Origin: a virus
Taxonomy: Duplodnaviria; Heunggongvirae; Uroviricota; Caudoviricetes
DNA length: 64,000 nucleotides
Reading direction: 5' to 3' (one strand)
Virus record (IMG/VR): IMGVR_UViG_3300016476_000987
Part shown: positions 4,222-27,909 of the stretch, in pieces
How positions within the stretch are numbered: position 1 is the first letter of the stretch
Layout: each line of letters begins with the position of its first letter
The notes under the pieces: generated by a model
The model's database searches: none
Told to the model about the DNA's origin: nothing
The model's input: the letters and a program-made list of their open reading frames with translations, nothing else
Program-made: the position numbers and the translations under genes

Positions 4222-4232
4222 TCTCTAAACTT

Positions 4233-11767: not shown

Positions 11768-12176
11768 AAAACTACATCCTAACGCAGTAATTCCTAAATA
11801 CGCAAAGGAAGGAGATGCAGGACTAGACTTAGTAGCTACTGAGGTTTATGAAGACTCTGAGGATCGAATTACTTATGGAACTGGCGTAGCTATAGAAATC
11901 CCCGAAGCATATTTAGGTCTCCTCATGCCTAGATCTTCTGTGAGAAACTATGATCTTATTCTATCAAACTCTGTTGGACTTTCGGATAGCGGATATCGGG
12001 GGGAGATTATGGCTACTTTTAAAAAGACAAAAGGATTCTACAGCAAAGCGTATTTTCCAGGAGAGCGTATTGTTCAATTAGTTATACTACCTTACCCCTA
12101 TATTTCTTTTGAGGAAGTGGAAGAACTGTCTGATTCTGAGAGGGGAGCCACAGGGTTTGGTAGCTCAGGTAAATAA
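11751..12176 (+). CDS. dut: dUTP diphosphatase
   Basis: Motifs AGLDL, PRSS, GLSDSGYRGEI and ERGATGFGSSG. An alternative start exists at 11742. Confidence 0.92.
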   Translation: MKVKIKKLHPNAVIPKYAKEGDAGLDLVATEVYEDSEDRITYGTGVAIEIPEAYLGLLMPRSSVRNYDLILSNSVGLSDSGYRGEIMATFKKTKGFYSKAYFPGERIVQLVILPYPYISFEEVEELSDSERGATGFGSSGK

Positions 12177-12181
12177 TAGTT

Positions 12182-14485
12182 ATGTTTGATAAGAAGTATG
12201 TTTTGGTAAATAGTGAGGAATCGCTAATAGAAATGGTTTCTCATATTAAATCTTTTAATATTATATCTTTTGATACGGAAACTACTTCTTTAAATCCAAG
12301 GAAAGGCAATATAGTGGGATTGTCCGTATCTGCTGAAGTAGGGATAGGCTATTATATGCCTACTTATTTGATGAAAGAAGGAGAGCTTGTTGAAGCAGAA
12401 ATTGCCGGTACTTCTTGTAAAGAGTTAGCCAGAAAGACCTTTAACTTATTGAAAAAGAAAAAGTTAGTAGGTCATAATCTATCTTTTGACTGTAGGTTTG
12501 TTTATCACGAATATGGTATAGACTTAGTTCCAAGCATTTACGCTGATACTTTATTGTTAGTACACACAGTATCTGAAGAAGGTATTGGCGTAGGCGGATC
12601 TTTTGCTCTTAAAGAAATTGCTAAAGGCATACAAGAGCATATAGGATTAGACATGGATAAAGAGGCTAACGAAGAACAGATAGAACTGAAGGCCTCTATA
12701 AAAGCTAATGGAGGGTCTACTACTAAAGAAAACTACGAAATCTACAAGGCAGATATAGATATTCTGTGTAAGTATGCTTGCGCAGATACTGACTTGACTC
12801 TTAGGGTATTTAATCACTTCTCCGACATACTAAAGGAAGAAAAACTAGAGTCTTTCTTTTATGAAGAAGAGGTTATGCCTTTGTATAAAGAAGTAACCAT
12901 TCCTATGGAAATGAACGGAGTTCTATTAGATATAGAACTCATGGAATCATCTAGAAAAGAAATAAAAGAAGACCTAGCTAAATACAAAAAGTTAGTTATT
13001 TCAGAACTTCTTAAAGATGATAGAGTTAGGGATTGGGTAGTAGCGAAAGCCATAACAGAGTTCCCAACCAGCAATAAAGGGAGGTTTGTCCAAGAATTGA
13101 TAAAAGTAACCGGCCAGGAATTCCCAGTATCTGCTAAAACCGGAAAATACTTAGTAAATGCTACTAATGTAAAATTGTGTGCTAATGAAGAGACTAAAGA
13201 GTTTCTTCTTACGGGAGATCCTAGTCTTATAGATGAAAATCTGTCCCTTAAAATAAGCATATCTTTATGGAAGGAAACTCAAGACGGAGATTTCTTTAAC
13301 ATACAATCCAAAGATCATTTAGGTCAAATAGCTTTTACTGCACTAGGAATGACTCCTATATCTACTACAGATAAAGGAAAGGCTCAATTCGATGATGATT
13401 TTATTCAATCCATCTCTGATAAACATGAGTGGGCTAAGAACTTACGCATATACAATAAACTGCTGAAGATAAAGTCTACATACATGGACCGGTTCCTTGA
13501 AAAGCAAGAGAATGGGATGTACTACTTTTACTATAAGCAGCATGCCACAGTATCCGGAAGATATGGATCAGACGCTCAACAGCTACCCAGACCTAAAGAA
13601 GAAGGAGAAGAGGACCCTATTGTACTGAAATACAATAATCTTATACGGGCTTTCTTTATATCAAAACCAGGGAACGTGTTTATTGATTGTGACTATGAGT
13701 CTTTGGAGCCTAAAGTATTCTCTCATGTATCTGGAGATGAAGGATTAAAGGACATTTTTAAGAATAATTGGGACTTTTACTCTACGATTGCTATAAAAAC
13801 TGAGAAGCTGCATCAGTACTCACCTGACAAAAAGGCACCCAACTACCTAAAGAAACTGGCAAATGATGTAAGACAGAAGGCTAAGGCATACTCTTTGGGG
13901 ATTGCTTATGGCATGGGAGCCTATGCTTTAGGTAAAAATATCAACGTTTCTACCAAAGAAGCAGAGAAGCTTGTCGAAGGTTATCTAAATGGGTTTCCTG
14001 AATTGAAAAGGTGGATGGAAGAATCCAGAGAGTTTGTAAAGAAAAACGGCTATATTAAAACTCAAGTAGGAAGAGTTCGACATTTATCAAAAGTTTCCTA
14101 TCTTTACAAGAAGTTTGGAGATAATCTTTTAGAATGGGATTATCAAAGAAAGCTAGAAGAAAAGCTAGGTAAAGACTTGGTTGTGAATATGGTAAGGGAT
14201 TATAAGAACGGTTTGAATAATGCAATGAACGTACAGATTCAAGGCTTAGCAGCATCTATTGTTAATAGGTCTGCTATAGCTATAAACCGTGCTTTTAAAG
14301 AAGCCGGAATAAAAGGACAAGTAATTGCACAGATTCATGACCAGTTAGTTATGGAAGTAGAAGAGGCAAGAGCGGAGGAGGCATCTAAAATAGTACAGGA
14401 TAAGATGGAAAACACAATCAATCTTACTGTAGAATTGAAAGCTCCTCCTGCTCTTGCTCATAATCTTAGAGATGGTCATGGCTAA
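12182..14485 (+). CDS. family A DNA polymerase with 3'-5' exonuclease domain
   Basis: ExoI FDTETTSL, ExoII GHNLSFDCRF, ExoIII YACADTDLT. SGRYGSDAQQLPRP. Motif A DCDYESLEPKVF, motif B RQKAKAYSLGIAYGMG, motif C QIHDQLVMEV. Confidence 0.95.
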   Translation: MFDKKYVLVNSEESLIEMVSHIKSFNIISFDTETTSLNPRKGNIVGLSVSAEVGIGYYMPTYLMKEGELVEAEIAGTSCKELARKTFNLLKKKKLVGHNLSFDCRFVYHEYGIDLVPSIYADTLLLVHTVSEEGIGVGGSFALKEIAKGIQEHIGLDMDKEANEEQIELKASIKANGGSTTKENYEIYKADIDILCKYACADTDLTLRVFNHFSDILKEEKLESFFYEEEVMPLYKEVTIPMEMNGVLLDIELMESSRKEIKEDLAKYKKLVISELLKDDRVRDWVVAKAITEFPTSNKGRFVQELIKVTGQEFPVSAKTGKYLVNATNVKLCANEETKEFLLTGDPSLIDENLSLKISISLWKETQDGDFFNIQSKDHLGQIAFTALGMTPISTTDKGKAQFDDDFIQSISDKHEWAKNLRIYNKLLKIKSTYMDRFLEKQENGMYYFYYKQHATVSGRYGSDAQQLPRPKEEGEEDPIVLKYNNLIRAFFISKPGNVFIDCDYESLEPKVFSHVSGDEGLKDIFKNNWDFYSTIAIKTEKLHQYSPDKKAPNYLKKLANDVRQKAKAYSLGIAYGMGAYALGKNINVSTKEAEKLVEGYLNGFPELKRWMEESREFVKKNGYIKTQVGRVRHLSKVSYLYKKFGDNLLEWDYQRKLEEKLGKDLVVNMVRDYKNGLNNAMNVQIQGLAASIVNRSAIAINRAFKEAGIKGQVIAQIHDQLVMEVEEARAEEASKIVQDKMENTINLTVELKAPPALAHNLRDGHG

Positions 14486-14514
14486 ATTTATGATATTTAT
14501 AGTAAATAAATACT

Positions 14515-15279
14515 ATGAATAATAACTACGTTGTTTACCAACATAGAAGATTAGATAATAATCAAATTTTTTATGTTGGACAAGGATTGTTAAGCAGAGC
14601 TTATCAAAATCAAGTGAACAGAAGAAACACTAATTGGATAAAAGTAGTCAAAGAAGCAGGAGGATTTATAGTAGATATATTAAAAGAAGGACTTAGTAAA
14701 GAGGAGTCTTTGATTATAGAATCTGAGTATATAAAAAAATATGGAACTATAAAACATAACACTGGAATTCTTGTAAATGAAAGACTGTCCGGGAGTAGAG
14801 GAGTAAAAAGTGGCTACACCCACTCTGAAGAAAAAAGAAAAGAGATAAGCGAAAAAACAAAAAAAGCCATGCAAAATCCGGAAACAAAAAAAAGATTAAT
14901 AGAAAGTCATTTAAAATATTGGGAAAATTCGGAAAATCATATAAAAGCTTCTATTTCTACTAAAGGAGTTCATGCTGGCAGTAAACACCCAATGTACGGT
15001 AAAACTCATTCGGAAGAGTCTAAAGATAAAATGTCAAAAGCTAAATTAGGAAAAAAAAGATCTTTAGAAGCAATTGAAAAATTAAAAAAAAGAATTCCTT
15101 GGAATAAAGGACTTAAAGGAGCATATAAACAAAAACAAGAGACTATAGAAAAAAGAAAAAATACTTTAAAAAATAGACCCTATACTCCTCAAAAAAAAGT
15201 AGAATGTCCTTATTGTAAATTAATAGGCGGTTTTACTAATATGAAAAGATATCACTTTGATAATTGCAAAAACAAATAA
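14515..15279 (+). CDS. GIY-YIG homing endonuclease with NUMOD3-like repeats
   Basis: N-terminal YVVYQH..IFYVGQG and a conserved Glu region ESLIIESEYI. Repeated GxTHSEExK segments (GYTHSEEKRKEISEK, GKTHSEESKDKMSKAK). C-terminal CPYC...FDNC. Lies directly after polA. Confidence 0.75.
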   Translation: MNNNYVVYQHRRLDNNQIFYVGQGLLSRAYQNQVNRRNTNWIKVVKEAGGFIVDILKEGLSKEESLIIESEYIKKYGTIKHNTGILVNERLSGSRGVKSGYTHSEEKRKEISEKTKKAMQNPETKKRLIESHLKYWENSENHIKASISTKGVHAGSKHPMYGKTHSEESKDKMSKAKLGKKRSLEAIEKLKKRIPWNKGLKGAYKQKQETIEKRKNTLKNRPYTPQKKVECPYCKLIGGFTNMKRYHFDNCKNK

Positions 15280-15289
15280 ACAAAAGATA

Positions 15290-15775
15290 ATGGTTATTAA
15301 AAAAAACACACATGCTCCGCTTAGGTTTCCTAAATTGCTTATTGGGGAAGTCCTTATTAGCGCTGTTGTAGAATTTACAGACTCTTGTAGGTACGATGTA
15401 GGAGAAGATCAACTAGATGTCAATAAACTATTTGGTATCGGATACTTCCCTACTCATCATACTAATAGCGTAAGATTTGGATGGAGATACGATAAAAATG
15501 TAGATAAGATAGAAATCTTAGCCTACTATTATTTAAATGGTGATAGGCATTTTGATACTCTGACTTGGGCAGATATTGGAGTTTCTTATAGATGCGTTAT
15601 CTTTATTGAGCCCAATAATCATACTTTGTGTATGGGTAAAAAAGATATAGGAAGTTTGTTTGAAGTAGAACATTCCGTTCCTGTTAAAAGAAAATCTGTA
15701 GGGTACCTTCTTAGGCCTTACTTTGGCGGAAACAAAAAAGCACCTCACAACATAGAAATTAAAATTGAGATATGA
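15290..15775 (+). CDS. hypothetical protein
   Basis: Start moved to MVIKKNTH to avoid overlap with the endonuclease gene. No motif recognised. Confidence 0.5.
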   Translation: MVIKKNTHAPLRFPKLLIGEVLISAVVEFTDSCRYDVGEDQLDVNKLFGIGYFPTHHTNSVRFGWRYDKNVDKIEILAYYYLNGDRHFDTLTWADIGVSYRCVIFIEPNNHTLCMGKKDIGSLFEVEHSVPVKRKSVGYLLRPYFGGNKKAPHNIEIKIEI

Positions 15776-16068
15776 GAAAAGTAGTAGCATTACACGACAA
15801 AGTTGTTCTTAAAAAAATTGAAGACGAAGACAAAGTAGTAGGAGGGATTATCATTCCCGATACCGGTAAAGAAAAATCAAACTATTTTGAGGTAGTTGAT
15901 ATAGGCCCAGGAATGTACCATCCTCACGTAATTAAAGAATATTATCCTATGGAGACATGTGTAGGAGACGTTGTTATTGTCCCTAAAGCAGTAGTAACGC
16001 AGATAATTGTAGACGGGGATGAATATTATGTTTGTAGAGAAGTAGAAATTCTAGCAATAATTAAGTGA
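15772..16068 (+). CDS. groES: co-chaperonin GroES-like
   Basis: VLKKIEDEDKVVGGIIIPDTGKEKSNYFEVVDIGPG matches the Cpn10 mobile-loop region. The ATGA overlap with the upstream gene and its position upstream of groEL support the call. Confidence 0.8.
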   Translation: MRKVVALHDKVVLKKIEDEDKVVGGIIIPDTGKEKSNYFEVVDIGPGMYHPHVIKEYYPMETCVGDVVIVPKAVVTQIIVDGDEYYVCREVEILAIIK

Positions 16069-16075
16069 TATAGAT

Positions 16076-16285
16076 ATGGACAAACATTTTGCTGTATTAG
16101 TAGATGTTCCTACAAAAGGAGAAATGATGTTGTTTCTTGGTTACTATGAAGATAATAAAGAGCAAATGGATGAAAGATATGAAGAGGTATCTATGGATCT
16201 TCCATTAACTCCTATCCTTGATAAATTGAAATCACACAAGTATAAATTGTTTAAACAAAAAGAAATAAATAATGATCAAGACTGA
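16076..16285 (+). CDS. hypothetical protein
   Basis: 69-aa acidic ORF between groES and groEL, overlapping the groEL start by 14 nt. Confidence 0.45.
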   Translation: MDKHFAVLVDVPTKGEMMLFLGYYEDNKEQMDERYEEVSMDLPLTPILDKLKSHKYKLFKQKEINNDQD

Positions 16286-17945
16286 ATTTGGAAATGAGCT
16301 AAAAAGTAAACTGCTCAGCGGTATTTGTAAATTGAATGATAGCGTATCCTCTACTCTCGGTCCTGGAGGTAGAAACGTTATTATCCGGGATGAGGATGGC
16401 AACATTAAAGTAACGAAAGACGGAGTTACTGTAGCCAGGGCTTTCTCTAAGCTTGAGGATGATATTGAAGACATCGGTGCTCAGATGATCCGTAAAGTGT
16501 CTGAGAAGTCTGCTGATAAAGCAGGAGACGGTACTACAACCTCTACTCTCCTGGCTACTGTAATGGTAGAAGAAGGAATCAAAGTTATCACTCAGGGATG
16601 TAATGCCGTAGAAGTTAAAAAGGGTATTGACATTGGAGTAAAAAAAGTAGTAAGCCTTCTTAAAGAACTCTCAAGAGAAATCTCTTCTGATGATCAAATC
16701 AAACAAGTAGCTACTATCTCTGCCAATAACGATGTTGAAGTAGGAAATCTTATTGCAACAGCGATTGATAAAGTAGGTACTGACGGTGTTGTAGCTATTG
16801 AAGAATCTAAGACTGGTGAGACTTCTCTGGAAGTTGTTGAGGGTATGATGTTTGATCGTGGGTACAAATCCCCTTATTTTGTCACCAATCAGAATACTAT
16901 GCAAGCCGTTCTGGAAAAGCCACTTGTATTTCTGTATGATGGCAAAATAATGAACTCTAGCCAAGCAGTACCAGTTCTACAAGCAGCTGCTATGGAAAAT
17001 AGGCCCCTTCTTATTGTTGCGGAAGAAATCGAAGGAGAAGCCCTGGCTCTTCTTGTAGTAAATAAAGCTAATCAAACGATTAAGGTCTGTGCAGTAAAAG
17101 CTCCAGACTTTGGAGATCGTAGGACTGCTATTCTGGAGGACATCGCTATTCTAACCGGTGGAACTGTCCTGTCTCCTAACAAAGGTCACAAGCTTGATAA
17201 AATGAAGCCGACCGAGTTCAAAGCACATTTCGGAGAAGCAAGGGTAGTTAATGTTACTTCTAAAGACACTACAATCGTAGATGGAAAAGGATCAGCAGAG
17301 GCTATTGAGCAAAGACTGAACGAGATTAAGACTCAAATTGATATTGCTAAGTCTAATTTTGAGATTGAGAAACTTCAAGAAAGGTTGTCTAAACTTACTG
17401 GAGGAGTAGCTATCGTTAACGTAGGAGGTCTTAGTGAAGTGGAAATGAAGGAAAAGAAAGATCGTGTAGAAGATGCTCTTTACGCTACCAAAGCTGCGTT
17501 GGATCAAGGTATTGTCCCAGGAGGAGGAATGGCCCTTGTTATGTGCTCTTATAGGCTTCTTAAAGAAGCTATTACTGAGAACTCAGATCAACAAATTGGA
17601 GTTAGTATTGTATATAAATCATTAGTAGCTCCATTCAGAAAGATTATGCAAAATGCAGGGATTGAAGATTATCATTCTATGCTTAGTGAAATTCGTGATC
17701 TTAGAGTCGAGCATGAAAAGAAGCATCCCGAAGATCCTATGTTTCTCTGGTATGGATACAATGTGAAACTTGGAAATTTTGTTAACATGTATAAGGAAGG
17801 GATTATAGATCCGACTAAAGTAACTAGGACCGCCATAGAGAACGCAGCTAGCGTAGCCGGTACAATCCTTACTACAGAATCAGTAATCTTCTCAGTAGGA
17901 GAAAAAAAGAAAGAAGAAATTGATTACAGCCAATTCATGCAATAA
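16272..17945 (+). CDS. groEL: chaperonin GroEL (Cpn60)
   Basis: Full-length Cpn60 signature: [76 protein letters not shown]. The Gly-Met-rich C-terminal tail is absent. Confidence 0.97.
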
Positions 17946-17960
17946 TTTAAATTAATAAAA

Positions 17961-18200
17961 ATGGAGCATAATCCCCTAGCAGGAGTTAAATTTGAACAGA
18001 CATCCGGAGTAGTTTGTGAAAAATGTAAAGAAGCTGTTTTTTCCGAAGCTCTTATCCTTAGAAAGGTGTCTAGATTTTTGGTAGCCACTACTAGTAATAA
18101 AGACACTCTTATTCCGGTACCTGTTTTTTATTGCGTAAATTGCAAGCACGTCAATAAAGAATTTTTACCGGAAGGGTACACACAAGAGGATTCAGAATGA
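17961..18200 (+). CDS. zinc-ribbon protein
   Basis: CEKC...CVNC pairs. Confidence 0.5.
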   Translation: MEHNPLAGVKFEQTSGVVCEKCKEAVFSEALILRKVSRFLVATTSNKDTLIPVPVFYCVNCKHVNKEFLPEGYTQEDSE

Positions 18201-18376
18201 ACATAGATGAGATAAATGACAAAATAAAGATTTGTCAACAAAAAATTAACAGTTGCAGTGAAAGATTAGAAGCCGTAACTGATTCCAATACTTCTATGGA
18301 TGAGTACAATAATATCGTCCTGGAATTAGATAAAGCTATAGACGAACTTACTGAACTGATTAAAATCATAGAATGA
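18197..18376 (+). CDS. small coiled-coil protein (59 aa, below the ORF-track cutoff)
   Basis: ATGA overlaps at both ends (17961 gene stop and 18373 gene start). Translation MNIDEINDKIKICQQKINSCSERLEAV...ELTELIKIIE. It explains the spurious antisense ORF 18235..18567. Confidence 0.55.
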   Translation: MNIDEINDKIKICQQKINSCSERLEAVTDSNTSMDEYNNIVLELDKAIDELTELIKIIE

Positions 18377-19308
18377 AAGAGTTCCTGGGTATTTCTGAAG
18401 AGATAAAGAATAAAATAAGAGAAGGGAAGAGGAGCGATCAAAAGAATATTTCTTTTAGTCAATTCTCGGTTTACGAATCTTGTCCGTACCGTTGGTACCT
18501 TACTTATGCTAAGGGAAACTATCTGTTTTCGGCTAGCATAAATACTGTATTTGGTACAGCTATTCATGAAGCTCTTCAGGAATACCTCAGGATCTTATTT
18601 GAAGTAAGTGCTAAAGAAGCAGATCGTTCTGATATTTTAGGCATATTTGAAACCTCTTTTAAAAGAGAGTACTTAAAAGAAGTAGAAAGTAATGGAGGAG
18701 TTCATTTTTCTAATAAAATAGAAATGATGGAGTTCTATGAAGATGGAGTACAAATATTAGAACAGTTTAGAAAAAAAAGGCAGCAGTTCTTTTCTAATAG
18801 AAAGCAAGAACTTTTAGGAATGGAAATTCCTTTATTAGTAGAAATAAAGGAAGACACTGATACTTTTTTATTCAATGGATTTATTGATTTAATTTATCGA
18901 GATAAAGAAGACGGTACGATTTACATAGAAGATATAAAAACATCCACAAAAGGCTGGTCTAAATATGAAAAGTCAGATGAGACCAAACTTTCACAGCTTC
19001 TTCTATATAAAAACTTCTTTTCTAAGCAATATGGATTTGACAAGAAAGATATTGTCCCCCAGTTCAGAATTCTAAAAAGAAAGCTTTGGGAAAATGCAGA
19101 ATTCCCTCAGAGCAGGATACAAACTCATGAGCCAGCGAATGGTACAGCAAAAGTAAATAATGCAGTACAAAGGCTTAATGTGTTCATCAATGAATGTTTT
19201 AATATTGATGGTACGCCTAAAGAAAAAGAGTATCCTAAAAAACCTTCCACTAATAATTGTAGATTTTGTCCTTTTAAAGATAGGCCGGATTTGTGCAATA
19301 AAAAGTAA
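18373..19308 (+). CDS. PD-(D/E)XK nuclease with Cas4/AddB-type Fe-S cysteine cluster
   Basis: N-terminal CPYRWY, core FNGFIDLIYRDKEDGTIYIEDIKTS (D..ExK), and C-terminal CRFCPFKDRPDLC. Confidence 0.75.
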   Translation: MKEFLGISEEIKNKIREGKRSDQKNISFSQFSVYESCPYRWYLTYAKGNYLFSASINTVFGTAIHEALQEYLRILFEVSAKEADRSDILGIFETSFKREYLKEVESNGGVHFSNKIEMMEFYEDGVQILEQFRKKRQQFFSNRKQELLGMEIPLLVEIKEDTDTFLFNGFIDLIYRDKEDGTIYIEDIKTSTKGWSKYEKSDETKLSQLLLYKNFFSKQYGFDKKDIVPQFRILKRKLWENAEFPQSRIQTHEPANGTAKVNNAVQRLNVFINECFNIDGTPKEKEYPKKPSTNNCRFCPFKDRPDLCNKK

Positions 19309-19331
19309 GTAATTTCTTTCGTTTTTGCATA

Positions 19332-19355
19332 TTTGTATATATTTATATATACAAA
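19332..19355. promoter_or_regulatory. perfect 10-bp inverted repeat (candidate operator)
   Basis: TTTGTATATA (19332-19341), a 4-nt spacer, then TATATACAAA (19346-19355). It ends 10 nt before the start of the RHH-like gene. Confidence 0.4.
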
Positions 19356-19364
19356 CTGTATATT

Positions 19365-19562
19365 ATGCGAAGCGAAAACTTAAAACTTACTTCCGTAAAA
19401 ATACATAAGGATTTAGCTGACAACTTTAAAGTTGAAAGTGCGTTGACTGGTTTTTCGTTGCAAAAACTGGTCAATCGGAGTTTGCACCTGTTTATGACAG
19501 ATCCAGACTTCAAAGTAAAACTTATGTCTTATAGCACACTCTCACCGAGCGGAAGTCTTTAA
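19365..19562 (+). CDS. putative ribbon-helix-helix DNA-binding protein
   Basis: 65 aa with a beta-strand-like LTSVKIHKDL followed by two helices (ADNFKVESALTG, SLQKLVNRSLHLF). First gene of the sugar island. Confidence 0.4.
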   Translation: MRSENLKLTSVKIHKDLADNFKVESALTGFSLQKLVNRSLHLFMTDPDFKVKLMSYSTLSPSGSL

Positions 19563-19574
19563 AAGAAATGATTT

Positions 19575-21014
19575 ATGAAAGAAGGTTATATTAAAAAAGA
19601 AGATAGAAAAAAGATTTTATTAATCTCAGACGACATTAGATTTTTTTCCGGTATCGCCACAGTGTCCAGGGAAATTGTTATTGGAACAGCACATCATTAT
19701 AACTATGTATGTATCTGTGCTGCTCTGCAACATCCGGACAAAGGCAAAAGAATGGACCTTAGCGAATCCACAAACCAAATAACTGGTATTACAGATTCAG
19801 ATGTTACTATTTACCCTTATGATGGTTATGGGGATGCCGATTTTGTAAGAAATTTGATAAAATACGAGAAGCCTGATGCTCTGTTTTTTGTAACAGATCC
19901 CAGGTATTACACTTGGCTTTTTGAAATAGAGAATGAAATTAGGAAAAAAATCCCAATGATTTATTTGCAGATTTGGGATTGCGAACCGGCTCCTCTTTAT
20001 AATAGAGAGTTCTATCGTAGTTGCGATGCCTTATTAGCTATTTCTAAACAAACAGAAATACTTAATAAAGTAGTGTTAGGTAAATACCAAGAAGATTGTC
20101 TTATTAAATATGTTCCTCATGGTATTAACAGTAACATGTTTTTTAAGATAGACTCAGGACATGAAAAGTATGAAGAGCTACAAAACTTTAGAAAAGATTT
20201 ATTCGGTAAAAAAGATTTTCAATTTGTAGTCCTTTTTAACAGTAGAAACATTCGTAGAAAATCTCTCCCGGATACTATTGTAGCTTTTAAATTATTACTG
20301 GACTCTATGTCTCCTGAAGAAGCGGATAAGTGCTGCTTAGTGCTTCATACACATCAAGTAGATGAAAATGGAACTGATCTACCAGCAGTAATTGAAGTAT
20401 TTTTAGGGGACAGGAAAGACCAAGTAATCTTTTCTAACCCTGGATTAGACACCGGTAGAATGAACCTTCTGTATAATCTTGCAGATGTTACAGTACTAAT
20501 AAGTAGTAACGAAGGATGGGGCCTCTCTTTAACAGAGAGCCTAATGTCTGGCACCATGATTATTGCGAACGTAACAGGAGGCATGCAAGATCAAATGAGG
20601 TTTGAAGACGAGAATGGAGATTGGATAGAGTTCACAGAGTCTTTCTGTTCTAATCATTTTGGAAAGTATAAGAATTGTGGAGAATGGGCTATCCCTGTAT
20701 TTCCTTCTAATATTAGTATCCAAGGATCTGTGCCTACTCCTTACATCGCTGACGACAGAGCAGACTTTAGAGACGTTGCTAATGCTATGAAGCAAGTATA
20801 CGGTATGTCTAAAGAAGAAAGGATTAGCAGAGGAATGAAAGGACGAGAGTGGGTAACTTCAGACGAGGCTATGATGACTGCTGATAATATGTGTAAAAAC
20901 GTCATAGAAGCAGTAGATCAAACTATAGAGGAGTTCAGCCCTAGAAAAAAATATTATATCATAAACACAAATGATAGAGATAAGAAAACTCTTGCTTTCC
21001 CTCTTTCTTTATAA
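19575..21014 (+). CDS. GT-B glycosyltransferase (GT4-like)
   Basis: E-x7-E region SSNEGWGLSLTESLMSGTMIIA. Confidence 0.7.
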   Translation: MKEGYIKKEDRKKILLISDDIRFFSGIATVSREIVIGTAHHYNYVCICAALQHPDKGKRMDLSESTNQITGITDSDVTIYPYDGYGDADFVRNLIKYEKPDALFFVTDPRYYTWLFEIENEIRKKIPMIYLQIWDCEPAPLYNREFYRSCDALLAISKQTEILNKVVLGKYQEDCLIKYVPHGINSNMFFKIDSGHEKYEELQNFRKDLFGKKDFQFVVLFNSRNIRRKSLPDTIVAFKLLLDSMSPEEADKCCLVLHTHQVDENGTDLPAVIEVFLGDRKDQVIFSNPGLDTGRMNLLYNLADVTVLISSNEGWGLSLTESLMSGTMIIANVTGGMQDQMRFEDENGDWIEFTESFCSNHFGKYKNCGEWAIPVFPSNISIQGSVPTPYIADDRADFRDVANAMKQVYGMSKEERISRGMKGREWVTSDEAMMTADNMCKNVIEAVDQTIEEFSPRKKYYIINTNDRDKKTLAFPLSL

Positions 21015-21022
21015 TATTAGTT

Positions 21023-21991
21023 ATGATAAAAAGAGCATTAATTACCGGGATCAACGGTATGGATGGTAGTCATTTAGCGGATTTACTATTGACTAAAGGA
21101 TATGTTGTGTATGGTATGGAAAGACGAAAGTCTGTAAAACAAAATACTAACACAAAACATCTAGAAGGGAAAGTTAACTTTTTAGTTGGAGATCTAACAG
21201 ATCAAAATTCTTTAGTAAGAGCTTTAGTAGAATCTGATCCTCATGAAGTGTATAATTTAGCTGCACAGTCTTTTGTAGGAGAGAGTTGGAATACCCCAGA
21301 GCAAACTTCTGATGTAACTGGTTTAGGAGTTCTTAGGGTGTTAGAGGCAATCAGAATGTATGATAAATACAATAAGATTAGATTCTATCAAGCCTCTTCT
21401 TCTGAGATGTTTGGTAGAATGGTAGAGAATCCGGCTACCGAACAAACTCCTTTTTATCCTAGAAGTCCTTATGGAGTAGCCAAGCTATATGGACATTGGA
21501 TAACTAAGAATTATAGAGAGTCTTATAACATGTTCACTTGCAGCGGTATTCTTTTCAATCATGAATCTGAAAGAAGAGGATTAGAATTTGTAACCAGGAA
21601 AATAACTAACGGAGTAGCTAAAATACAAAAAGGATTGGCCGACAGTATTTCTTTGGGAAATCTAGATGCAAAAAGAGATTGGGGATATGCTCCTGATTAT
21701 GTAGAAGCTATGTGGGCCATGTTACAAAGAGATACTCCGGATGATTATGTTATATCTACAGGAAATACTTACAGTGTAAGAGACTTTCTAGACGTTGCTT
21801 TTCAAACAGTAGGAATTTCTAATTGGGAACCCTATGTTAAAATAGACCCTAAGTTTTTTAGACCGGCAGAAGTAGATGTCCTAAGAGGACATTCAGGTAA
21901 AGCTAGAGCCTCTTTAGGTTGGTACCCTAAAACTTCTTTTGAAGATATGGTAAAGATTATGGTTAATAATGATATTAAATTACTAAACTAA
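21023..21991 (+). CDS. gmd: GDP-mannose 4,6-dehydratase
   Basis: ALITGINGMDGSHLADLLLTKGY, YQASSSEMFG, SPYGVAKLYGHWITKNYRESY, GILFNHESERRG. Confidence 0.92.
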   Translation: MIKRALITGINGMDGSHLADLLLTKGYVVYGMERRKSVKQNTNTKHLEGKVNFLVGDLTDQNSLVRALVESDPHEVYNLAAQSFVGESWNTPEQTSDVTGLGVLRVLEAIRMYDKYNKIRFYQASSSEMFGRMVENPATEQTPFYPRSPYGVAKLYGHWITKNYRESYNMFTCSGILFNHESERRGLEFVTRKITNGVAKIQKGLADSISLGNLDAKRDWGYAPDYVEAMWAMLQRDTPDDYVISTGNTYSVRDFLDVAFQTVGISNWEPYVKIDPKFFRPAEVDVLRGHSGKARASLGWYPKTSFEDMVKIMVNNDIKLLN

Positions 21992-21992
21992 T

Positions 21993-23303
21993 ATGAATAA
22001 GTTATCGTGTGTAGTAGCCAGTCCAATTGATACATTTAGCGGATATGGTGTTATGGCTAGAAATTTTGCAAAAGCTCTTCTTAAAATAAGGAAAGACGAA
22101 TGGGATATTAAATTCTTGTCTTTGAGATGGGGAATGACTCCTTTTGGAGCATTAGATGAATCTGATCCTTCAGATGCAGAGATTATGAGTCTAATTATCC
22201 CAGACGGACAACTAAAATATAAACCAGATATTTGGTTTCAGATTAGCGTGTCTGAAGAGTTTACTCCTGTAGGAACGGTAAATATTGGGTACTCTTGTTT
22301 AGTAGAGACTACCATTCTTCCTGGGGAAATGCTTGAAGGGCTCAATAGAATGAATTTTAATCTTGTTTCTTGTGAGCATGCAAAAACTATTGCTACATCT
22401 ACTTCATGGGATAAAGTAGACCAAAATCAGAAAAAAATAGGAGAGTTAGTACTAGAAAAGCCAGTAGAAACTTTATTTATTGGGCTTGATACAGATAAGT
22501 TTAAGAAGCCTAAATCGGTATCTTTTGATCTTTCTAACATTAAAGAATCTTTTTGTTTTTTATCAGTAGGGCATATGCTTCCCGGAGCTGTAGAGTTAGA
22601 AGATCGAAAAATGATGGGAAGATTAATTAAAACTTTCTTAGAGACTTTTAAAGATAAAAAAAACAAACCTGCTCTTATACTTAAAACAGCAACCTCAGGT
22701 TATTCTTATGTAGACCAAGAAAGGACGTTATCTATTATAGACAAAATTAAAAGTACTGTATCAGGAAAAGACCTCCCAAATATTTACCTAATTCATGGAG
22801 AATTAAGTGAACAGGAACTTTGTGAGCTATATTCTCATGATAAAGTAAAAGCTTTTGTACTAACCGGCAACGAAGGTTTTGGTCTACCTTACATAGAATT
22901 TTCAGCAGTATCAGGAAAACCTTTGATTGTGTCTCCCTGGAGCGGTCATTTAGATTTTTTAGATAAAGAATTTAACACTTTTGTATTTGGGGCTATAGAG
23001 CAAATTCACCCAGCAGCAGCAAATAAGTATTTACTAAGAGAGGCTGCGTGGTATAAACCTGATGTAAAAGATCTTTCGGACAAACTTGTAGACATGCATA
23101 AGAATTATTCTAAGTATGTAGACAACGGAAAAAGACAAGGATTTAAATCTAGAACAGAATTTACTATTGATAAGATGGCTGAGAAATTAGACGATATTCT
23201 TAAAACTAATATTCCTCCTATTAGCAAACCCGTTCCCTTATCTTTACCTAAACTAGTTGATATAAAAAAGCCTAACTTTGACTATCTAGAAGAATCTAAA
23301 TAA
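21993..23303 (+). CDS. GT-B glycosyltransferase-like protein
   Basis: TGNEGFGLPYIEFSAVSGKPLIVS (E-x7-E-like motif). Confidence 0.6.
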   Translation: MNKLSCVVASPIDTFSGYGVMARNFAKALLKIRKDEWDIKFLSLRWGMTPFGALDESDPSDAEIMSLIIPDGQLKYKPDIWFQISVSEEFTPVGTVNIGYSCLVETTILPGEMLEGLNRMNFNLVSCEHAKTIATSTSWDKVDQNQKKIGELVLEKPVETLFIGLDTDKFKKPKSVSFDLSNIKESFCFLSVGHMLPGAVELEDRKMMGRLIKTFLETFKDKKNKPALILKTATSGYSYVDQERTLSIIDKIKSTVSGKDLPNIYLIHGELSEQELCELYSHDKVKAFVLTGNEGFGLPYIEFSAVSGKPLIVSPWSGHLDFLDKEFNTFVFGAIEQIHPAAANKYLLREAAWYKPDVKDLSDKLVDMHKNYSKYVDNGKRQGFKSRTEFTIDKMAEKLDDILKTNIPPISKPVPLSLPKLVDIKKPNFDYLEESK

Positions 23304-23310
23304 ATAAAGT

Positions 23311-23511
23311 ATGAACTCTAAAGAATTTGTAATTTGGTTAAAAGGATTTGTAGCCGCAGCAAATGAATATAATATAACTCCTAAGCAATTTGAACAAATT
23401 GTAGAGCAGTTGAGTAAAGTATCGGAAGGTACTAATGTATACTACGGAACTACTATTACAGGAGTTTCAAGCACTTCTCCAGTGTCAAAAACAAACACAT
23501 TAAACGGATAA
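23311..23511 (+). CDS. hypothetical protein
   Basis: 66-aa ORF in the operon string. Confidence 0.45.
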   Translation: MNSKEFVIWLKGFVAAANEYNITPKQFEQIVEQLSKVSEGTNVYYGTTITGVSSTSPVSKTNTLNG

Positions 23512-23513
23512 TA

Positions 23514-23957
23514 ATGTCAGATCAATTAACTACTTGTAGAAAATGCGGATCTCCTCTATGTTATGAAAGACATACAGAGAGTATCATCTTCTGGGACTGT
23601 TTACAATGTGGCTATAGCACTAACACCCTTCTTTTAGTAAACACAGAAGCCGTGTTCTCTTATGAATCTATGGTACCTAGACTATTTCAGGATATTAAGT
23701 ATGTAGACAGTGATGGGCTAGTTTGGTTTCCTACCACTGTAACTAAAGAAGGAGTAGGGATTATTTTTCCAGATGGAACCAATAAAGATGATTGGAAGTG
23801 GGCAGTAGCTAGACATGTGCCGGTAGAAGAAGCAGAAAAAGAGAGATTTAAAAAGAAAGATGGGACATATCATACCTATAAAACGGATATGAAAAATGTT
23901 CTTCATTTTGATAAAGAGTATTTTTCTAAAGCATTAGAATCGTTAGGATTTATTTAA
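23514..23957 (+). CDS. zinc-ribbon protein
   Basis: CRKCGSPLC...CLQCGYS. Confidence 0.5.
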   Translation: MSDQLTTCRKCGSPLCYERHTESIIFWDCLQCGYSTNTLLLVNTEAVFSYESMVPRLFQDIKYVDSDGLVWFPTTVTKEGVGIIFPDGTNKDDWKWAVARHVPVEEAEKERFKKKDGTYHTYKTDMKNVLHFDKEYFSKALESLGFI

Positions 23958-23967
23958 TAAAGTAATT

Positions 23968-24591
23968 ATGGTAAGCGTATCATATTGTATTACAGTTCAT
24001 AATGAAGGCTCTATGTATTTAGAGCCTCTTTTTCAAAAGCTATTTAAGTATTTACAACCGGAAGATGAGATTGTAGTAGTAGATGATATGTCTGATGAAG
24101 AGACTACTATCGCTACTCTTTCTAAATACGAAGATAGAATCAATTATTATAAGCATAAGTTTGAAGGAAATTTTGCTAATCATAAGAACTTTGCAAAATC
24201 AAAATGTACTAAGGATTATATATTCTTTATAGATGCTGATGAAAATATGCACGATAATCTTCTGCTTACTTTAAAAGAAGTGCTTTACAATAATCCTACC
24301 GTAGAAATGTACATGGTACCAAGAATTAATATAGTTCCTGGATTGACTGAGGAACATAAGAAAGCTTGGGGGTGGGTAACTAATGAAAAAGGGTGGATAA
24401 TGTTTCCGGATTATCAGACTCGAATTATTAAAAACTTGTCTAGTATTAACTGGGAAGGGAAAGTACATGAAAGATTGTCCGGACACACCGTTCATACAGC
24501 ATTGCCTCACGAAACAGAAGACTATTGTCTATTGCATATCAAAGATATAAAAAGACAAGAAGCGCAAAATAATCTATATAACAGTTTATGA
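23968..24591 (+). CDS. family 2 glycosyltransferase (GT-A)
   Basis: VSYCITVHNE, VVVDDMSDEET and FFIDADE (DxD). Confidence 0.75.
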   Translation: MVSVSYCITVHNEGSMYLEPLFQKLFKYLQPEDEIVVVDDMSDEETTIATLSKYEDRINYYKHKFEGNFANHKNFAKSKCTKDYIFFIDADENMHDNLLLTLKEVLYNNPTVEMYMVPRINIVPGLTEEHKKAWGWVTNEKGWIMFPDYQTRIIKNLSSINWEGKVHERLSGHTVHTALPHETEDYCLLHIKDIKRQEAQNNLYNSL

Positions 24592-25502
24592 AAATCGTAT
24601 TTCATAGCAATCAACTAGGAATCAGAGGCACAGAAGTAGCTTTATACGATTATGCGCACTATAATGAATCTATACTGGGAAATATTTCTTATATAGCTGC
24701 TCCGGTGTACTCAGACATGCAGGCGCATGAAAAATTTAAAAATAGATTTAAAGATAGAGTACTATTATACGGTACTTTAGATGAACTGCGTTCTTATAAT
24801 TTTGACGTAGCTTATTTTATAAAGGCAGGATATAATGATGGAAAATTAATTGAAGGAGCTAAAAACATAGTTCATTATGTGTTTGATGGATCTGCTCCTC
24901 ATGGAGATGCTTATGTTGGAGTAAGTGAGTGGTTATCTAAAAAATACAATACAGAGTTTCTCCCCCACATAGTATCCCTCCCAGAAGTAGATTATTCTTA
25001 TAGAGAATACTTAGGTATCTCAAAAGAAGATATTGTGTTTGGTAGATATGGAGGACTAGATCAATTTGATGTTTCTTACTTGAGAGAATCAGTAGAAGCT
25101 GCTGCCGATACAGGTATCAAGTTTCTTTTTATGAACACTTCTGTTTTTACAATAGATCATCCTAATATCATATACTTAACTCCTTCTTATGAATTAGAAA
25201 CTAAGTCTGCTTTTATAAACAGTTGCGATGCTATGCTTCATGGTAGAACAGAAGGAGAAACCTTTGGTTTATCTATTTGTGAGTTCTTGTATTTTAATAA
25301 ACCGGTAGTAACTAACATAATTTGTAGAGATAGAAATCACATAGAATTATTAAAAGACAAAGGATTTTATTACACAAATGCAAATGAGTTATATTCTATA
25401 TTAGTGAATTTTACTAAAAAAGATTATAGCGTAAAACAGCTAGTACAAAAGTATAGCCCAGAAGAAGTTATTAATAAATTTAAAAATTTATATAATGGAT
25501 AG
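24588..25502 (+). CDS. GT-B glycosyltransferase-like protein
   Basis: GRTEGETFGLSICEFLYFNKPVVT. Confidence 0.55.
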   Translation: MKIVFHSNQLGIRGTEVALYDYAHYNESILGNISYIAAPVYSDMQAHEKFKNRFKDRVLLYGTLDELRSYNFDVAYFIKAGYNDGKLIEGAKNIVHYVFDGSAPHGDAYVGVSEWLSKKYNTEFLPHIVSLPEVDYSYREYLGISKEDIVFGRYGGLDQFDVSYLRESVEAAADTGIKFLFMNTSVFTIDHPNIIYLTPSYELETKSAFINSCDAMLHGRTEGETFGLSICEFLYFNKPVVTNIICRDRNHIELLKDKGFYYTNANELYSILVNFTKKDYSVKQLVQKYSPEEVINKFKNLYNG

Positions 25503-26178
25503 AGTATTTCAGAATTATCATAGAGTATATAATTATTTTTCTCCAAAATCTTATTTAGATATAGGGGCTTGCAAAGGACATCACATTCCATACGTTTTAC
25601 AAATCTTAAAAGATTTGAATAAAATAGAATTAATAGAAGCTTGTAGATATCATGAATATGATTTAAAATTATTACAAAACAGTTTTTTTACAAAAAATAT
25701 TTCTTATAAAATAGAAGTACTGTCTGATTGTGTAAAGGAAGTAGACTTCTACTTATCTGGCCTAGAGGAACAAGGCTCCGGTGGGACCGGTAACTCTTAT
25801 TACAAAGAGGATACTCCTCATTATGTAAACTGCGTAATAGAAAAAAGAATAACTAATACTTTAGACATATTGTATAAATACGAAGAGCCTTTTGATCTAA
25901 TTAAAATGGATACTCAAGGTAGTGAGTTGGATATAATAAAAGGAGGATTAAACATAATATCTAATGCTAAAGGTATTATATTAGAAGAAAACGTAGTTAC
26001 TTTTAATACCGGCGCTCCTTTGCATTATGAAGTAAAGCCTTATATGGAATCTATTGGATTTGTATTATGCGAAATATTAGATGAAAAAAACTATCCTATT
26101 AATAATAGTAAAGGAGTGCTTACTCCTCATCATGAAATAGACACGCTTTATATTAGAAAAGACGTGCTTAATCTTTAA
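25495..26178 (+). CDS. FkbM-family methyltransferase
   Basis: LDIGACKGHH and IKMDTQGSELDIIKGG. Confidence 0.7.
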   Translation: MDRVFQNYHRVYNYFSPKSYLDIGACKGHHIPYVLQILKDLNKIELIEACRYHEYDLKLLQNSFFTKNISYKIEVLSDCVKEVDFYLSGLEEQGSGGTGNSYYKEDTPHYVNCVIEKRITNTLDILYKYEEPFDLIKMDTQGSELDIIKGGLNIISNAKGIILEENVVTFNTGAPLHYEVKPYMESIGFVLCEILDEKNYPINNSKGVLTPHHEIDTLYIRKDVLNL

Positions 26179-26186
26179 TATATACT

Positions 26187-27065
26187 ATGAAAATATGTTT
26201 TGTTTATGATTATGAATCTGAGCTTTTGTCTCCTGCTCAATCTTTAATAAACGAATTTATTAGACGGAGTTGTTTAGTATCTAGAGTACATCTATCAAAC
26301 ACTTTAAATTTTCACAAAGCATTAATAGCAAACTACTACGATATTATCATTATCCTGGACAAAACTGGTACTGATATTCCACAAATTATTCACAATCAGA
26401 TTTCTAAGGACATTTTTAAAATCAGAGATTGTGGGGGCACTCCTCAAAAATATGAAGCACATTTACCGCATATAAAAAATTATAATATGTTGCTGACTTC
26501 TGACTATGTCTCCTGTCAGAAGTATATGGCTGAAGGAATCCCCTGTTTATGGTTTAATCATTTTGCGGATACTGATATTCATAAAATATACGAGGGAGAG
26601 GATAGAATGCCTCCTGTACGCTCTACAATGGGCCAAGAAGGCTCTAAAATAGTCGATGCGCTGTCTACCCTTATGCCAAATAAATTTGTCAATAAAAGCG
26701 ATCTAATAGGCTCAGAATACGGGCGCTTTTTAGGGCAAGGAAAAATAGTAGTTCATCACAGTAGGAACGAACAGATCAGCCATAAAATTTTTGAAGCAAT
26801 GGCCTGTAAAAAACTAGTCATTACTGACCGTCTTCCTGAGCATACCCGGATAGCGGACTTATTTGAAGAAGGAAAAGACATCGTTTTTTATGATGATTTT
26901 TCTGATCTCATTTCAAAAATAAACTACTATCTTTGCCCTGAGGGGGAAAGGGGGAGAGAGGATATAGCTATTAGTAGCTATACTAAAGTAATAAATAGTC
27001 ATACTGAGTATAATAGAGTAAATAGTATTATAAGTAGTTATAATAATTGGAAAAATAATCTATAG
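26187..27065 (+). CDS. CgeB-like glycosyltransferase (GT-B C-terminal domain)
   Basis: KIFEAMACKKLVITDRLPE. Confidence 0.5.
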   Translation: MKICFVYDYESELLSPAQSLINEFIRRSCLVSRVHLSNTLNFHKALIANYYDIIIILDKTGTDIPQIIHNQISKDIFKIRDCGGTPQKYEAHLPHIKNYNMLLTSDYVSCQKYMAEGIPCLWFNHFADTDIHKIYEGEDRMPPVRSTMGQEGSKIVDALSTLMPNKFVNKSDLIGSEYGRFLGQGKIVVHHSRNEQISHKIFEAMACKKLVITDRLPEHTRIADLFEEGKDIVFYDDFSDLISKINYYLCPEGERGREDIAISSYTKVINSHTEYNRVNSIISSYNNWKNNL

Positions 27066-27072
27066 TATTATT

Positions 27073-27909
27073 ATGAAAACATTTGATTGTTTTACTTTTT
27101 TTAATGAAATAGATCTACTAAAGATAAGATTAGAGCTTCTTAAAGATGTAGTAGACTATCATGTCATTGTAGAAAGTAATCTAACGTTTAGTGGTTTAAA
27201 TAAAAACTACATATTAGAAGATCACTGGAATGATTTTATAGATTGGAAGAATAAGTTAATTTATATAAAAATAGAACAGTCTAAAGAGGGATTAGAATTT
27301 AGAAAAGTAAATAGCTACTCTCCAGATAACGGAAGTTGGATATTAGAATATCAGCAAAGAAATAGTTTACAGAACGTGTCAGATATAGTAAATGACAATG
27401 ACGTTTTATTGATAGGAGACGTAGACGAAATTCCTGATCCGGAAGCTGTATTAGCTTTAAAAGAATATTTAAAGTCTGGGTACCCTATAGCATTGTCTAT
27501 GCTGTTTCATTACTACTATATGAATTGCCAGAATGTAGGATATGAAAGATATTGGAACGGTACTGTAGGATGTAAGGGAGTTGATTTTAAAAATAATACT
27601 CCTCAACAATTTAGAGATAAAAGGAACAACTATCAAAGATTCTCTAACGGAGGATATCATTTTTCTTTCTTAGGAGGAGTAGAAAAGATTAGAACTAAGA
27701 TCCAGTCTTTTGCTCATACTGAGTTTAATAGAGAAGACATTCTATCAGAAGAAAATATAGTAGAATCTATAGAGAAAGGTAAAGACGTATTCAACAGACC
27801 TGGGGTTTCTTATGAGTTTGTAGATCCTTATCAATATCCGCAAAGAATAAGAGAGTTAATGTTTAAGTATCCTCATTTAATGAAATATGAAAATAAAAGA
27901 TCTAGTTAA
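27073..27909 (+). CDS. family 17 glycosyltransferase (GnT-III-like)
   Basis: FDCFTFFNEIDLLKIRLELLKDVVDYHVIVESNLTFSG and GGYHFSFLGG. Confidence 0.8.
   Translation: MKTFDCFTFFNEIDLLKIRLELLKDVVDYHVIVESNLTFSGLNKNYILEDHWNDFIDWKNKLIYIKIEQSKEGLEFRKVNSYSPDNGSWILEYQQRNSLQNVSDIVNDNDVLLIGDVDEIPDPEAVLALKEYLKSGYPIALSMLFHYYYMNCQNVGYERYWNGTVGCKGVDFKNNTPQQFRDKRNNYQRFSNGGYHFSFLGGVEKIRTKIQSFAHTEFNREDILSEENIVESIEKGKDVFNRPGVSYEFVDPYQYPQRIRELMFKYPHLMKYENKRSS

Follow-up and report, generated by a model that had tools for sequence, protein, structure and literature searches.

A conserved small gene lies between groES and groEL in a chaperonin operon of immuto-like phages

The window analysed here, a stretch of 64,000 nucleotides (nt) from a virus of the class Caudoviricetes (IMG/VR record IMGVR_UViG_3300016476_000987), contains a chaperonin operon in which a small orphan gene, hereafter gene X (product, X), separates groES from groEL. 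A first-pass annotation made from the sequence had described three open reading frames (ORFs) of 98, 69 and 557 amino acids (aa), the outer two encoding a Cpn10-like protein and a full-length Cpn60. A mechanical ORF listing places the three frames just as described, head to tail on the + strand (Table 1), and the identities of the outer two are borne out by Pfam and PHROG and, for the Cpn60, by TIGR02348 as well. The operon is located in the replication module, just downstream of the gene for the DNA polymerase.

Table 1. Coordinates of the chaperonin operon, its parts and other features of the window
Feature	Position	Strand	Basis or remark
groES (Cpn10 co-chaperonin), 98 aa	15772-16068	+	Pfam Cpn10; PHROG 3188 'co-chaperonin GroES'
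GroES mobile loop, residues 17-35, EDEDKVVGGIIIPDTGKEK	15820-15876	+	Gly-Gly and hydrophobic tripeptide III; alignment with Salmonella GroES
gene X, 69-aa acidic orphan	16076-16285	+	conserved family, dN/dS, AlphaFold2 fold, fixed position after groES
overlap of X stop region and groEL start, 14 nt	16272-16285	+	ORF listing; overlap in L017 also 14 nt
groEL (Cpn60, group I chaperonin), 557 aa	16272-17945	+	TIGR02348; PHROG 5725; catalytic, hinge and apical residues
lineage-specific 13-residue GroEL equatorial insertion, within residues 477-492	17700-17747	+	gaps of 9+4 residues versus 5da8
GroEL C-terminal tail in place of (GGM)n	17898-17942	+	conserved in clade A; immuto equivalent 'IDPSQFM'
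family A DNA polymerase (PolA), conserved upstream neighbour	12182-14485	+	Pfam DNA_pol_A and 3'-5' exonuclease; synteny in immuto and metagenomic relatives
free-standing homing endonuclease (GIY-YIG-like N terminus, NUMOD3 repeats), between PolA and the chaperonin block	14515-15279	+	Pfam NUMOD3; PHROG homing endonuclease
upstream orphan ORF (ORFan), 161 aa	15290-15775	+	ATG start (mechanical TTG start 15257); stop overlaps groES start by 4 nt
orf79, 79-aa double-CxxC protein	17961-18200	+	widely conserved neighbour of viral groES-groEL
divergent ribonucleotide reductase (RNR)-like protein, 634 aa	7849-9753	+	weak RNR barrel match
sugar-modification run, 8 kb	19575-27909	+	
WYL domain protein	28746-29534	+	
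four tRNA genes	31343-35902	+	Leu-TAG, Leu-TAA, Met-CAT, Arg-TCT
thymidylate synthase (ThyA), 391 aa	41476-42651	+	Pfam
response-regulator receiver domain protein	43672-44400	+	E 1.3e-24

As the first-pass annotation had noted, X is acidic (isoelectric point 4.9, net charge about -5) and its frame runs 14 nt into groEL. The ATG at 16272 is the true groEL start, since the N terminus that it opens, MIKTEFGN, aligns with residues 3-10 of bacterial GroEL, and the overlap is therefore real. Searches with X returned no match in Pfam, PHROG or NCBIfam, no significant structural neighbour in the PDB or BFVD, and no tblastn match (E<=1) in 50,697 phage records, including that of Flavobacterium phage vB_FspM_immuto (immuto). 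An exhaustive search of 1.84 billion representatives with a hidden Markov model of X gave only 36 matches, all but two of them standalone proteins of 51-95 aa. The family comprises at least 27 homologues, with identity falling to ~31%; its members are 61-90 aa long and acidic (isoelectric point ~5), share invariant residues (A6, F20, E25, Y56, K57, F59, K60 and K62) and carry the C-terminal signature YK(V/L)FKxK. The ratio of nonsynonymous to synonymous substitution rates (dN/dS) for close pairs is 0.15-0.40, indicative of purifying selection, yet X evolves 5-10 times faster than GroEL. AlphaFold2 predicts a compact beta-beta-alpha-beta-alpha-beta fold at a mean confidence (pLDDT, predicted local distance difference test) of 82, and gene callers call X independently in every X-bearing relative examined. 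Judged by these patterns of conservation, X is a real gene family under purifying selection. Both the family and the groES-X-groEL arrangement appear to be undescribed; nothing of the kind turned up in the family libraries or literature searched, and a term search of Marine et al. 2017 (PMC5649160), a survey of viral chaperonin operons, found no mention of a gene between groES and groEL. One member of the family departs from the usual layout: in relative L011, X (4001-4273 of that contig) is lengthened to 90 aa by a low-complexity tail, and GroEL (4278-5858) is called from a GTG that leaves it ~26 N-terminal residues short, with profile alignment placing the expected start inside X. This may reflect a frameshift, an assembly error or a real rearrangement.

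The position of X is as constant as its sequence is variable. We examined 22 X loci; bulk retrieval yielded at least 3 from IMG/VR and at least 4 from metagenomes. Immediately upstream of X lies groES in all 22, and immediately downstream lies groEL in 20; the two others are L015, where the contig ends, and L188, where a homing endonuclease gene is followed by the contig end. The junctions are tight: groES and X lie 1-5 nt apart or overlap by 11 nt, and X and groEL overlap by 1-14 nt in 9 of the 11 X loci in which this was measured, an arrangement compatible with translational coupling. The gene is found also in far more distant phages that carry a family B polymerase (PolB) and clamp loader module (L011-L015). 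X has been kept even where the neighbouring polymerase changed from one family to the other, A or B, and retained in the same slot over divergence to 62% identity in GroEL and ~31% in X itself. The earlier suggestion that an inserted small gene is unusual proved correct: no gene separates groES from groEL in any of 77 cellular loci, where the spacer is 2-142 nt, and X was not found in 80 more distant viral (IMG/VR) loci.

A neighbour-joining tree of GroEL unites all X-bearing loci with three that lack X (L006, L008 and L009) in one clade (bootstrap 100%). Within it the X-less loci cluster together (95%) and branch from among X-bearing lineages (96%), and one gain followed by one loss of X is therefore the simplest history. 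A comparison of GroEL sequences gave no signal of changes tied to the loss (3 fixed differences, versus 2-10 in control partitions). Nor could X be linked to the insertion or the tail that distinguish the window's GroEL; we rejected such a link on the grounds that X-bearing phages of the PolB type have short insertions and that immuto, which lacks X, has the same tail type. In other lineages the junction between groES and groEL holds genes of other kinds, namely GIY-YIG homing endonucleases in L043 (236 aa) and L052 (216 aa), an unknown 264-aa ORF in L049, and ORFs of ~96-100 aa in L071 and 83 aa in L008, all unrelated to X. The junction is a recurrent, permissive insertion site.

With respect to function, the positional linkage of X, its tight packing and its long retention suggest a product made with the chaperonin. 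X entered the interval between groES and groEL a single time, at the base of one clade, and has since been kept under purifying selection; because it is tightly packed with both neighbours, it is presumably produced together with GroES and GroEL. We tentatively prefer a reading, which falls somewhat short of an even chance, in which X assists or modulates chaperonin function in this lineage alone, acting on the chaperonin of the phage or of the host, by analogy with gp39.2 of phage T4, to our knowledge the sole precedent for a small phage-encoded modulator of a chaperonin. In a stronger version, which we regard as rather doubtful, X would be the first representative of a novel type of chaperonin accessory protein. 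A small acidic subunit co-translated with GroES and GroEL, it would attach to the chaperonin of the phage or of the host and adjust the cycle of that chaperonin, its choice of clients or its segregation from host GroEL subunits, thereby giving a three-component group I system. Were this so, the unrelated small ORFs that occupy the same slot in L008 and L071 could be analogous solutions.

Several of the observations above weigh against a chaperonin-related role, and most of them speak at the same time for a different account, in which X is an unrelated ORFan or 'moron' (concerned, for example, with host takeover or anti-defence) that landed once in a permissive, well-expressed junction beside an ordinary two-component GroES/GroEL. 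X was gained only once and lost only once on the GroEL tree, such that its fixed position may reflect no more than one insertion event, inherited vertically along with two flanking genes that are never parted. Its loss in L006, L008 and L009 left no excess of GroEL changes over the control partitions and no detectable compensating change, from which it follows that X is dispensable for the chaperonin as such. The slot has been invaded recurrently, by homing endonucleases in L043 and L052 and by unrelated ORFs in L008, L049 and L071, and the junction between PolA and groES in the window likewise holds a homing endonuclease and a young ORFan. Furthermore, the rapid evolution of X relative to GroEL resembles that of many phage accessory genes, and the X profile has no sequence or profile similarity to gp39.2 (hhalign probability 0.4%). 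What an unrelated ORFan accounts for less readily is that X was kept in exactly the same place over deep divergence, that it survived the swap of the adjacent polymerase, and that its frame overlaps groEL in most members, so that the two are presumably jointly expressed; none of these points is decisive. We treat an unrelated ORFan as a serious contender, if one that stops short of being probable, and what is left after it and the modulator falls to other roles of X.

Either outcome would be informative. Should X prove to bind the chaperonin, small phage-encoded modulators of chaperonins would be known in two types, gp39.2 and X, of which X alone would have its gene within a chaperonin operon. 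Should it not, the locus would still illustrate neatly that ORFans and homing endonucleases accumulate and persist at junctions between conserved phage core genes. In both cases X is a concrete, testable candidate, an orphan of 61-90 aa between groES and groEL in one phage clade that has no counterpart in 77 cellular operons.

The two genes that flank X encode what looks like a complete chaperonin. GroES matches the Pfam Cpn10 profile (PF00166) over positions 1-93 of 93 (E 1.8e-18; 66.8 bits, cutoff 21.1) and is divergent, as it falls under the stricter NCBIfam GroES cutoffs (74.8 bits versus 96). The GGIII of its mobile loop pairs with the GGIVL of E. coli and Salmonella GroES, a motif kept across the clade, and its roof region is ~4 residues longer than in bacterial GroES. 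The gene is under strong purifying selection (dN/dS 0.04-0.15) and lies 203 nt upstream of groEL in the same operon, and GroES is likewise encoded upstream in all relatives. On the strength of the conserved residues, phage GroES most likely caps phage GroEL through the GGIII motif, and would do so, like other Cpn10 proteins, as a heptameric lid that binds in the presence of ATP.

GroEL matches Pfam Cpn60_TCP1 (PF00118; E 3e-65; 221 bits, cutoff 34.3) and PHROG 5725 'chaperonin groEL' (E 8e-149), and scores above the cutoff of the NCBIfam equivalog TIGR02348 (626.9 versus 582.1 bits). We scored its residues in an alignment with Salmonella GroEL and eleven phage relatives. The nucleotide-binding and hinge motifs, said in the first-pass annotation to be present, are indeed all conserved: the nucleotide-binding and catalytic residues (T30-P33, K51, D52, D87-T91, D398, G414-416 and D495), with the GP.GRN loop at 30-35, GDGTTT at 86-91 and GGG at 414-416, are identical to those of Salmonella GroEL both in the window GroEL and in the 11 relatives, and the hinge glycines G192, G375 and G410 are kept. 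Also kept are the apical residues that bind substrate and GroES (Y199, Y203, F204, L237, L259, V263 and V264), the sole change there being the conservative L234V. Consistent with this conservation, the dN/dS of GroEL is 0.02-0.07, which indicates strong purifying selection.

Three regions of the protein differ from the bacterial norm. At positions aligned with inter-ring contacts of E. coli GroEL (105/109 and 434/452/461-464), through which two heptameric rings are joined back to back, K105 and R452 are retained and five residues are changed (A109Q, E434S, E461D, S463H and V464S). Directly after the positions aligned with contacts 461-464 comes the equatorial insertion, whose length varies among relatives; here AlphaFold2 predicts an extended helix (467-484) and a short one (489-493) with a pLDDT of 82-87, within a whole-chain model that is only moderate (mean pLDDT 71). 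The third region is the C terminus. GroEL typically ends in a flexible tail rich in Gly and Met that is not essential, and such GGM tails were present in 75 of the 80 cellular GroELs that we fetched. The first-pass annotation had recorded the tail as absent, which is right inasmuch as there is no (GGM)n; however, viral GroELs further removed have short tails rich in Met (IDPSMMGMM, DPMMGMGMM), with which the tail type of the clade intergrades, and the window's tail is thus degenerate rather than simply missing.

To judge from these conserved residues, the GroES/GroEL pair looks fully functional and self-sufficient, in agreement with the earlier idea of an autonomous folding machine. Non-native protein would bind the hydrophobic groove of the GroEL apical domains, ATP would bind, and phage GroES would cap the cage, which would provide the phage with a folding chamber independent of the host. 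The purposes proposed earlier for such a chamber, a specific virion client or a bypass of host limitation, are plausible, and the altered ring interface may leave room for a different oligomeric cycle.

The same altered interface raises the possibility that this GroEL is instead a holdase which needs no co-chaperonin and alternates between double-ring and single-ring states in the manner of gp146 of Pseudomonas phage EL, a protein that ATP causes to fall apart into single rings and that fails to bind GroES (PMC7185714). In keeping with this are the five diverged inter-ring residues, the ordered 13-residue insertion adjacent to them and the missing GGM tail. We nevertheless consider an EL-type mechanism improbable, because a strongly conserved GroES is encoded alongside and the apical groove is intact. 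Whereas phages of the EL type have no co-chaperonin gene, here a bona fide Cpn10 with an intact mobile loop, itself under strong purifying selection, lies directly upstream of the chaperonin; every apical position used for binding GroES and substrate is conserved; and the window GroEL passes the GroEL equivalog model. Altered ring contacts need not mean independence of a lid, as mitochondrial Hsp60 has them and still uses Hsp10. The non-GGM tail, the altered interface and the ordered insertion do make this protein a reasonable case for structural comparison with the single-ring phage chaperonins.

Possession of both genes does not set the window apart. The idea that a paired GroES and GroEL is in itself unusual in phages found no support: the pair is ordinary and is already known for this phage group. 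Viral operons of both orders, GroES>GroEL and GroEL>GroES, are abundant (Marine et al. 2017, PMC5649160), and GroEL/GroES are found in the polymerase neighbourhood of all immuto-like phages, whose genomes are 155-190 kb (PMC11348598). Immuto itself is annotated with PolA, co-chaperonin GroES and chaperonin GroEL in that order, the two chaperonin genes 2 nt apart. Moreover, in a sample of 80 IMG/VR GroEL loci that are 51-61% identical to the window GroEL, GroES immediately precedes GroEL, in the same orientation, at each of the 78 loci for which upstream sequence exists, and the spacing is <=19 nt in 74. These loci are phage rather than cellular contamination, since the phage-specific orf79 family lies downstream in 68 of the 80 (versus 0 of 80 cellular loci) and their GroELs have short, non-cellular tails. 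The accompanying statement that some phages carry only one chaperonin partner fared better in part. Among cultured phage records, 254 had a GroEL match and only 22 a GroES match with the window's divergent queries, a difference in the direction claimed, although the short GroES query under-detects.

The pair also appears to have a long history in phages. In a search covering one genome for each of 185,579 species, the best cellular GroEL, from the Chloroherpetonaceae, was 53% identical to that of the window, followed by other Chlorobi, Ignavibacteria and Bacteroidota at 49-51%. At least 120 metagenomic proteins are, on the other hand, 70-99% identical to it, and every one of these whose contig was inspected sits in the same phage module. 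Because identity to cellular GroELs reaches only 53%, versus 70-99% for relatives in phage context, the groEL gene is, on sequence divergence, an old phage resident and not a recent host capture; the outcome that the first-pass annotation had named as fatal to its proposal, a recent acquisition from the host, was looked for and is not what we found. The best solved relatives of the window GroEL are Chlorobaculum GroEL (5da8) and a reconstructed ancestral chaperonin of the Fibrobacteres-Chlorobi-Bacteroidetes (FCB) group, with no phage chaperonin among the 60 best solved-structure matches, and the gene was probably acquired anciently from an FCB-group host. No CIRCE operator was found, no Rfam family matched in 14400-18500, and a scan of 12000-19600 for sigma-70 promoters and terminators gave nothing above shuffle expectation, with a model that is probably wrong for a Bacteroidota host.

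Two further explanations carry next to no weight. That the pair lacks any history of its own in phages, being either a recent capture of host groESL or cellular sequence contaminating the assembly, could draw on the cellular order of the genes (groES>groEL) and on the kinship of its best solved relatives with the FCB group, the likely host phylum; it is effectively refuted by divergence and phage context, that is, by the 53% ceiling on identity to any cellular GroEL found and the large 70-99% clade confined to phage replication modules, and further by the phage genes that flank the chaperonins on both sides, the phage-type tail in place of the GGM carried by most cellular GroELs and the lack of a CIRCE operator. 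That the 69-aa ORF arose by chance, the spacer between groES and groEL simply being longer than usual, would fit its shortness and its want of a database family, and is dismissed with equal confidence given its homologues with invariant residues down to ~31% identity, a dN/dS well below 1, the confidently predicted fold, the independent calls across relatives, and cellular spacers of 2-142 nt that hold no ORF.

Taken as a whole, the operon is best explained, with moderate confidence, as a functional group I chaperonin long carried by an immuto-like lineage, to which X has been added, perhaps as a lineage-specific accessory or modulator. The pair then joins a class of phage chaperonins that is already known and widespread, and bears out that such genes have long resided in phages and were not freshly captured from hosts.

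The window itself is phage DNA. It encodes a gp32-like single-stranded DNA-binding protein, a RecA-like ATPase, a 5'-3' exonuclease, a DnaB-type helicase, a divergent RNR and PolA, together with a PD-(D/E)XK nuclease, ThyA, a dNMP kinase, the NUMOD3 homing endonuclease and four tRNAs. A megablast search of the window against the 50,697 phage records gave no nucleotide-level match, and the closest cultured phage is immuto (genus Immutovirus), with GroEL 54% and GroES 39% identical. The window belongs among the immuto-like aquatic phages of ~155-190 kb, a group marked by a regular DNA polymerase (A, B or C) beside GroES/GroEL, by nucleotide-metabolism genes and by genomes of 155-190 kb. The window shares PolA-groES-groEL synteny with immuto; dUTPase, RNR and ThyA genes occur nearby in the window or in its relatives; and a protein identical to the window's X sits on a contig of 183,965 bp. 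The hosts of this lineage are probably Bacteroidota. Many metagenomic contigs, as well as immuto, share the module order PolA/PolB - groES - (X) - groEL - orf79 - PD-(D/E)XK nuclease. In L009, L011 and L013 the chaperonin block adjoins a family B polymerase with clamp loader and clamp rather than a family A polymerase, and in the GroEL tree L009 (PolB) is grouped with L006 and L008 (PolA), variation that fits the polymerase swapping published for this phage group (PMC11348598).

Among the neighbouring genes, orf79 accompanies viral groES-groEL far more widely than X does. It starts 15 nt downstream of groEL, and its homologues lie downstream of groEL on the same strand in 83 of the 99 phage loci compared and in none of the 80 cellular ones, at a distance of 11-46 nt in the window clade and ~1-1.5 kb in most others; some members lack the cysteines. 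No family annotation was found for orf79, a comparison with T4 gp39.2 gave no BLASTP alignment and an hhalign probability of 0.5%, and X and orf79 have no similarity to each other. On the upstream side, a homologue of the window's homing endonuclease occupies the same junction in L008, a 369-kb contig (E 2e-85). The 161-aa ORFan that follows it, a variable neighbour that is probably co-transcribed, has no Pfam, PHROG or NCBIfam match and has homologues only in the closest relatives (L002, L017, L004 and L010); at its position other relatives have a different ORF of 287 aa, and relatives of the PolB type one of 249 aa, whose family is found at this position in 48 loci. A 59-aa coiled-coil ORF with a faint match to prefoldin alpha (E 0.02) was dismissed as an effect of coiled-coil composition.

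Further from the operon, the sugar-modification run consists of a group 1 glycosyltransferase, a GDP-mannose 4,6-dehydratase, a family 2 glycosyltransferase, an FkbM-type methyltransferase, a GT1-like protein and a family 17 glycosyltransferase, the first two of which are conserved just downstream of the chaperonin block in relatives. The thymidylate synthase appears to hold ~120 extra residues at some point in the enzyme, as its residues 7-389 are spread over a Pfam profile of 266 positions. The RNR-like protein matches the RNR barrel over ~120 residues (E 3e-8) and is accordingly a very divergent RNR. A response-regulator receiver domain protein and a WYL domain protein are also encoded. Near 50 kb, GC skew and AT skew change sign and the large ORFs pass from the + to the - strand, marking a boundary between divergently oriented modules.

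Set beside known systems, the locus is closest to that of immuto, which likewise has DNA polymerase, groES and groEL followed by small ORFs that include the zinc-finger-like orf79 protein and a PD-(D/E)XK nuclease, and whose GroEL ends in the related tail IDPSQFM. Immuto differs in having neither a gene between groES and groEL nor any X homologue, and the window adds the homing endonuclease and the 161-aa ORFan between PolA and groES. The GroES>GroEL operons of virioplankton (PMC5649160) similarly comprise a group I pair in canonical order on contigs of large double-stranded DNA phages, with GroELs divergent from cellular ones and a retained hydrophobic tripeptide in the mobile loop; in GroES>GroEL clusters of that study the mobile-loop glycine is replaced by Asn or Ser, whereas the window keeps Gly-Gly.

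Two groups of phage proteins offer more distant parallels. In the account of Ang & Georgopoulos 2012 given in PMC4396842, T4 gp39.2 (NwgI) is described as a small, dispensable protein that shifts the equilibrium between open and closed GroEL. Unlike X, which has no Cys motif and is encoded between groES and groEL, gp39.2 is Cys-rich and zinc-ribbon-like (annotated as FmdB-like), acts on host GroEL and is encoded away from any chaperonin gene, and we regard the resemblance between the two as functional speculation only. The chaperonins of jumbo phages, EL gp146, OBP gp246 and AR9 gp228 (PMC7185714, PMC9598537), are Cpn60-family proteins that share altered ring-ring contacts with the window GroEL; those phages encode no GroES, whereas the window has an adjacent, dedicated GroES and a GroEL of equivalog level.

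Compared with bacterial GroES/GroEL (E. coli; Chlorobaculum tepidum, 5da8), the window pair has the same families, domain layout, ATPase, hinge and apical residues and mobile-loop logic, and differs in a GroEL that is only 46-53% identical, that has no (GGM)n and that combines diverged inter-ring residues with the 13-residue insertion, as well as in the presence of a protein-coding gene where cellular operons have a short spacer. Finally, T4 gp31 and RB49 CocO are, like the window's GroES, phage-encoded lids for a GroEL-type cage. In contrast to gp31, a GroES analogue that works with host GroEL and has no roof hairpin (PMC5649160), the lid encoded here is a genuine Cpn10, somewhat longer in its roof region, and is paired with a GroEL of the phage's own.

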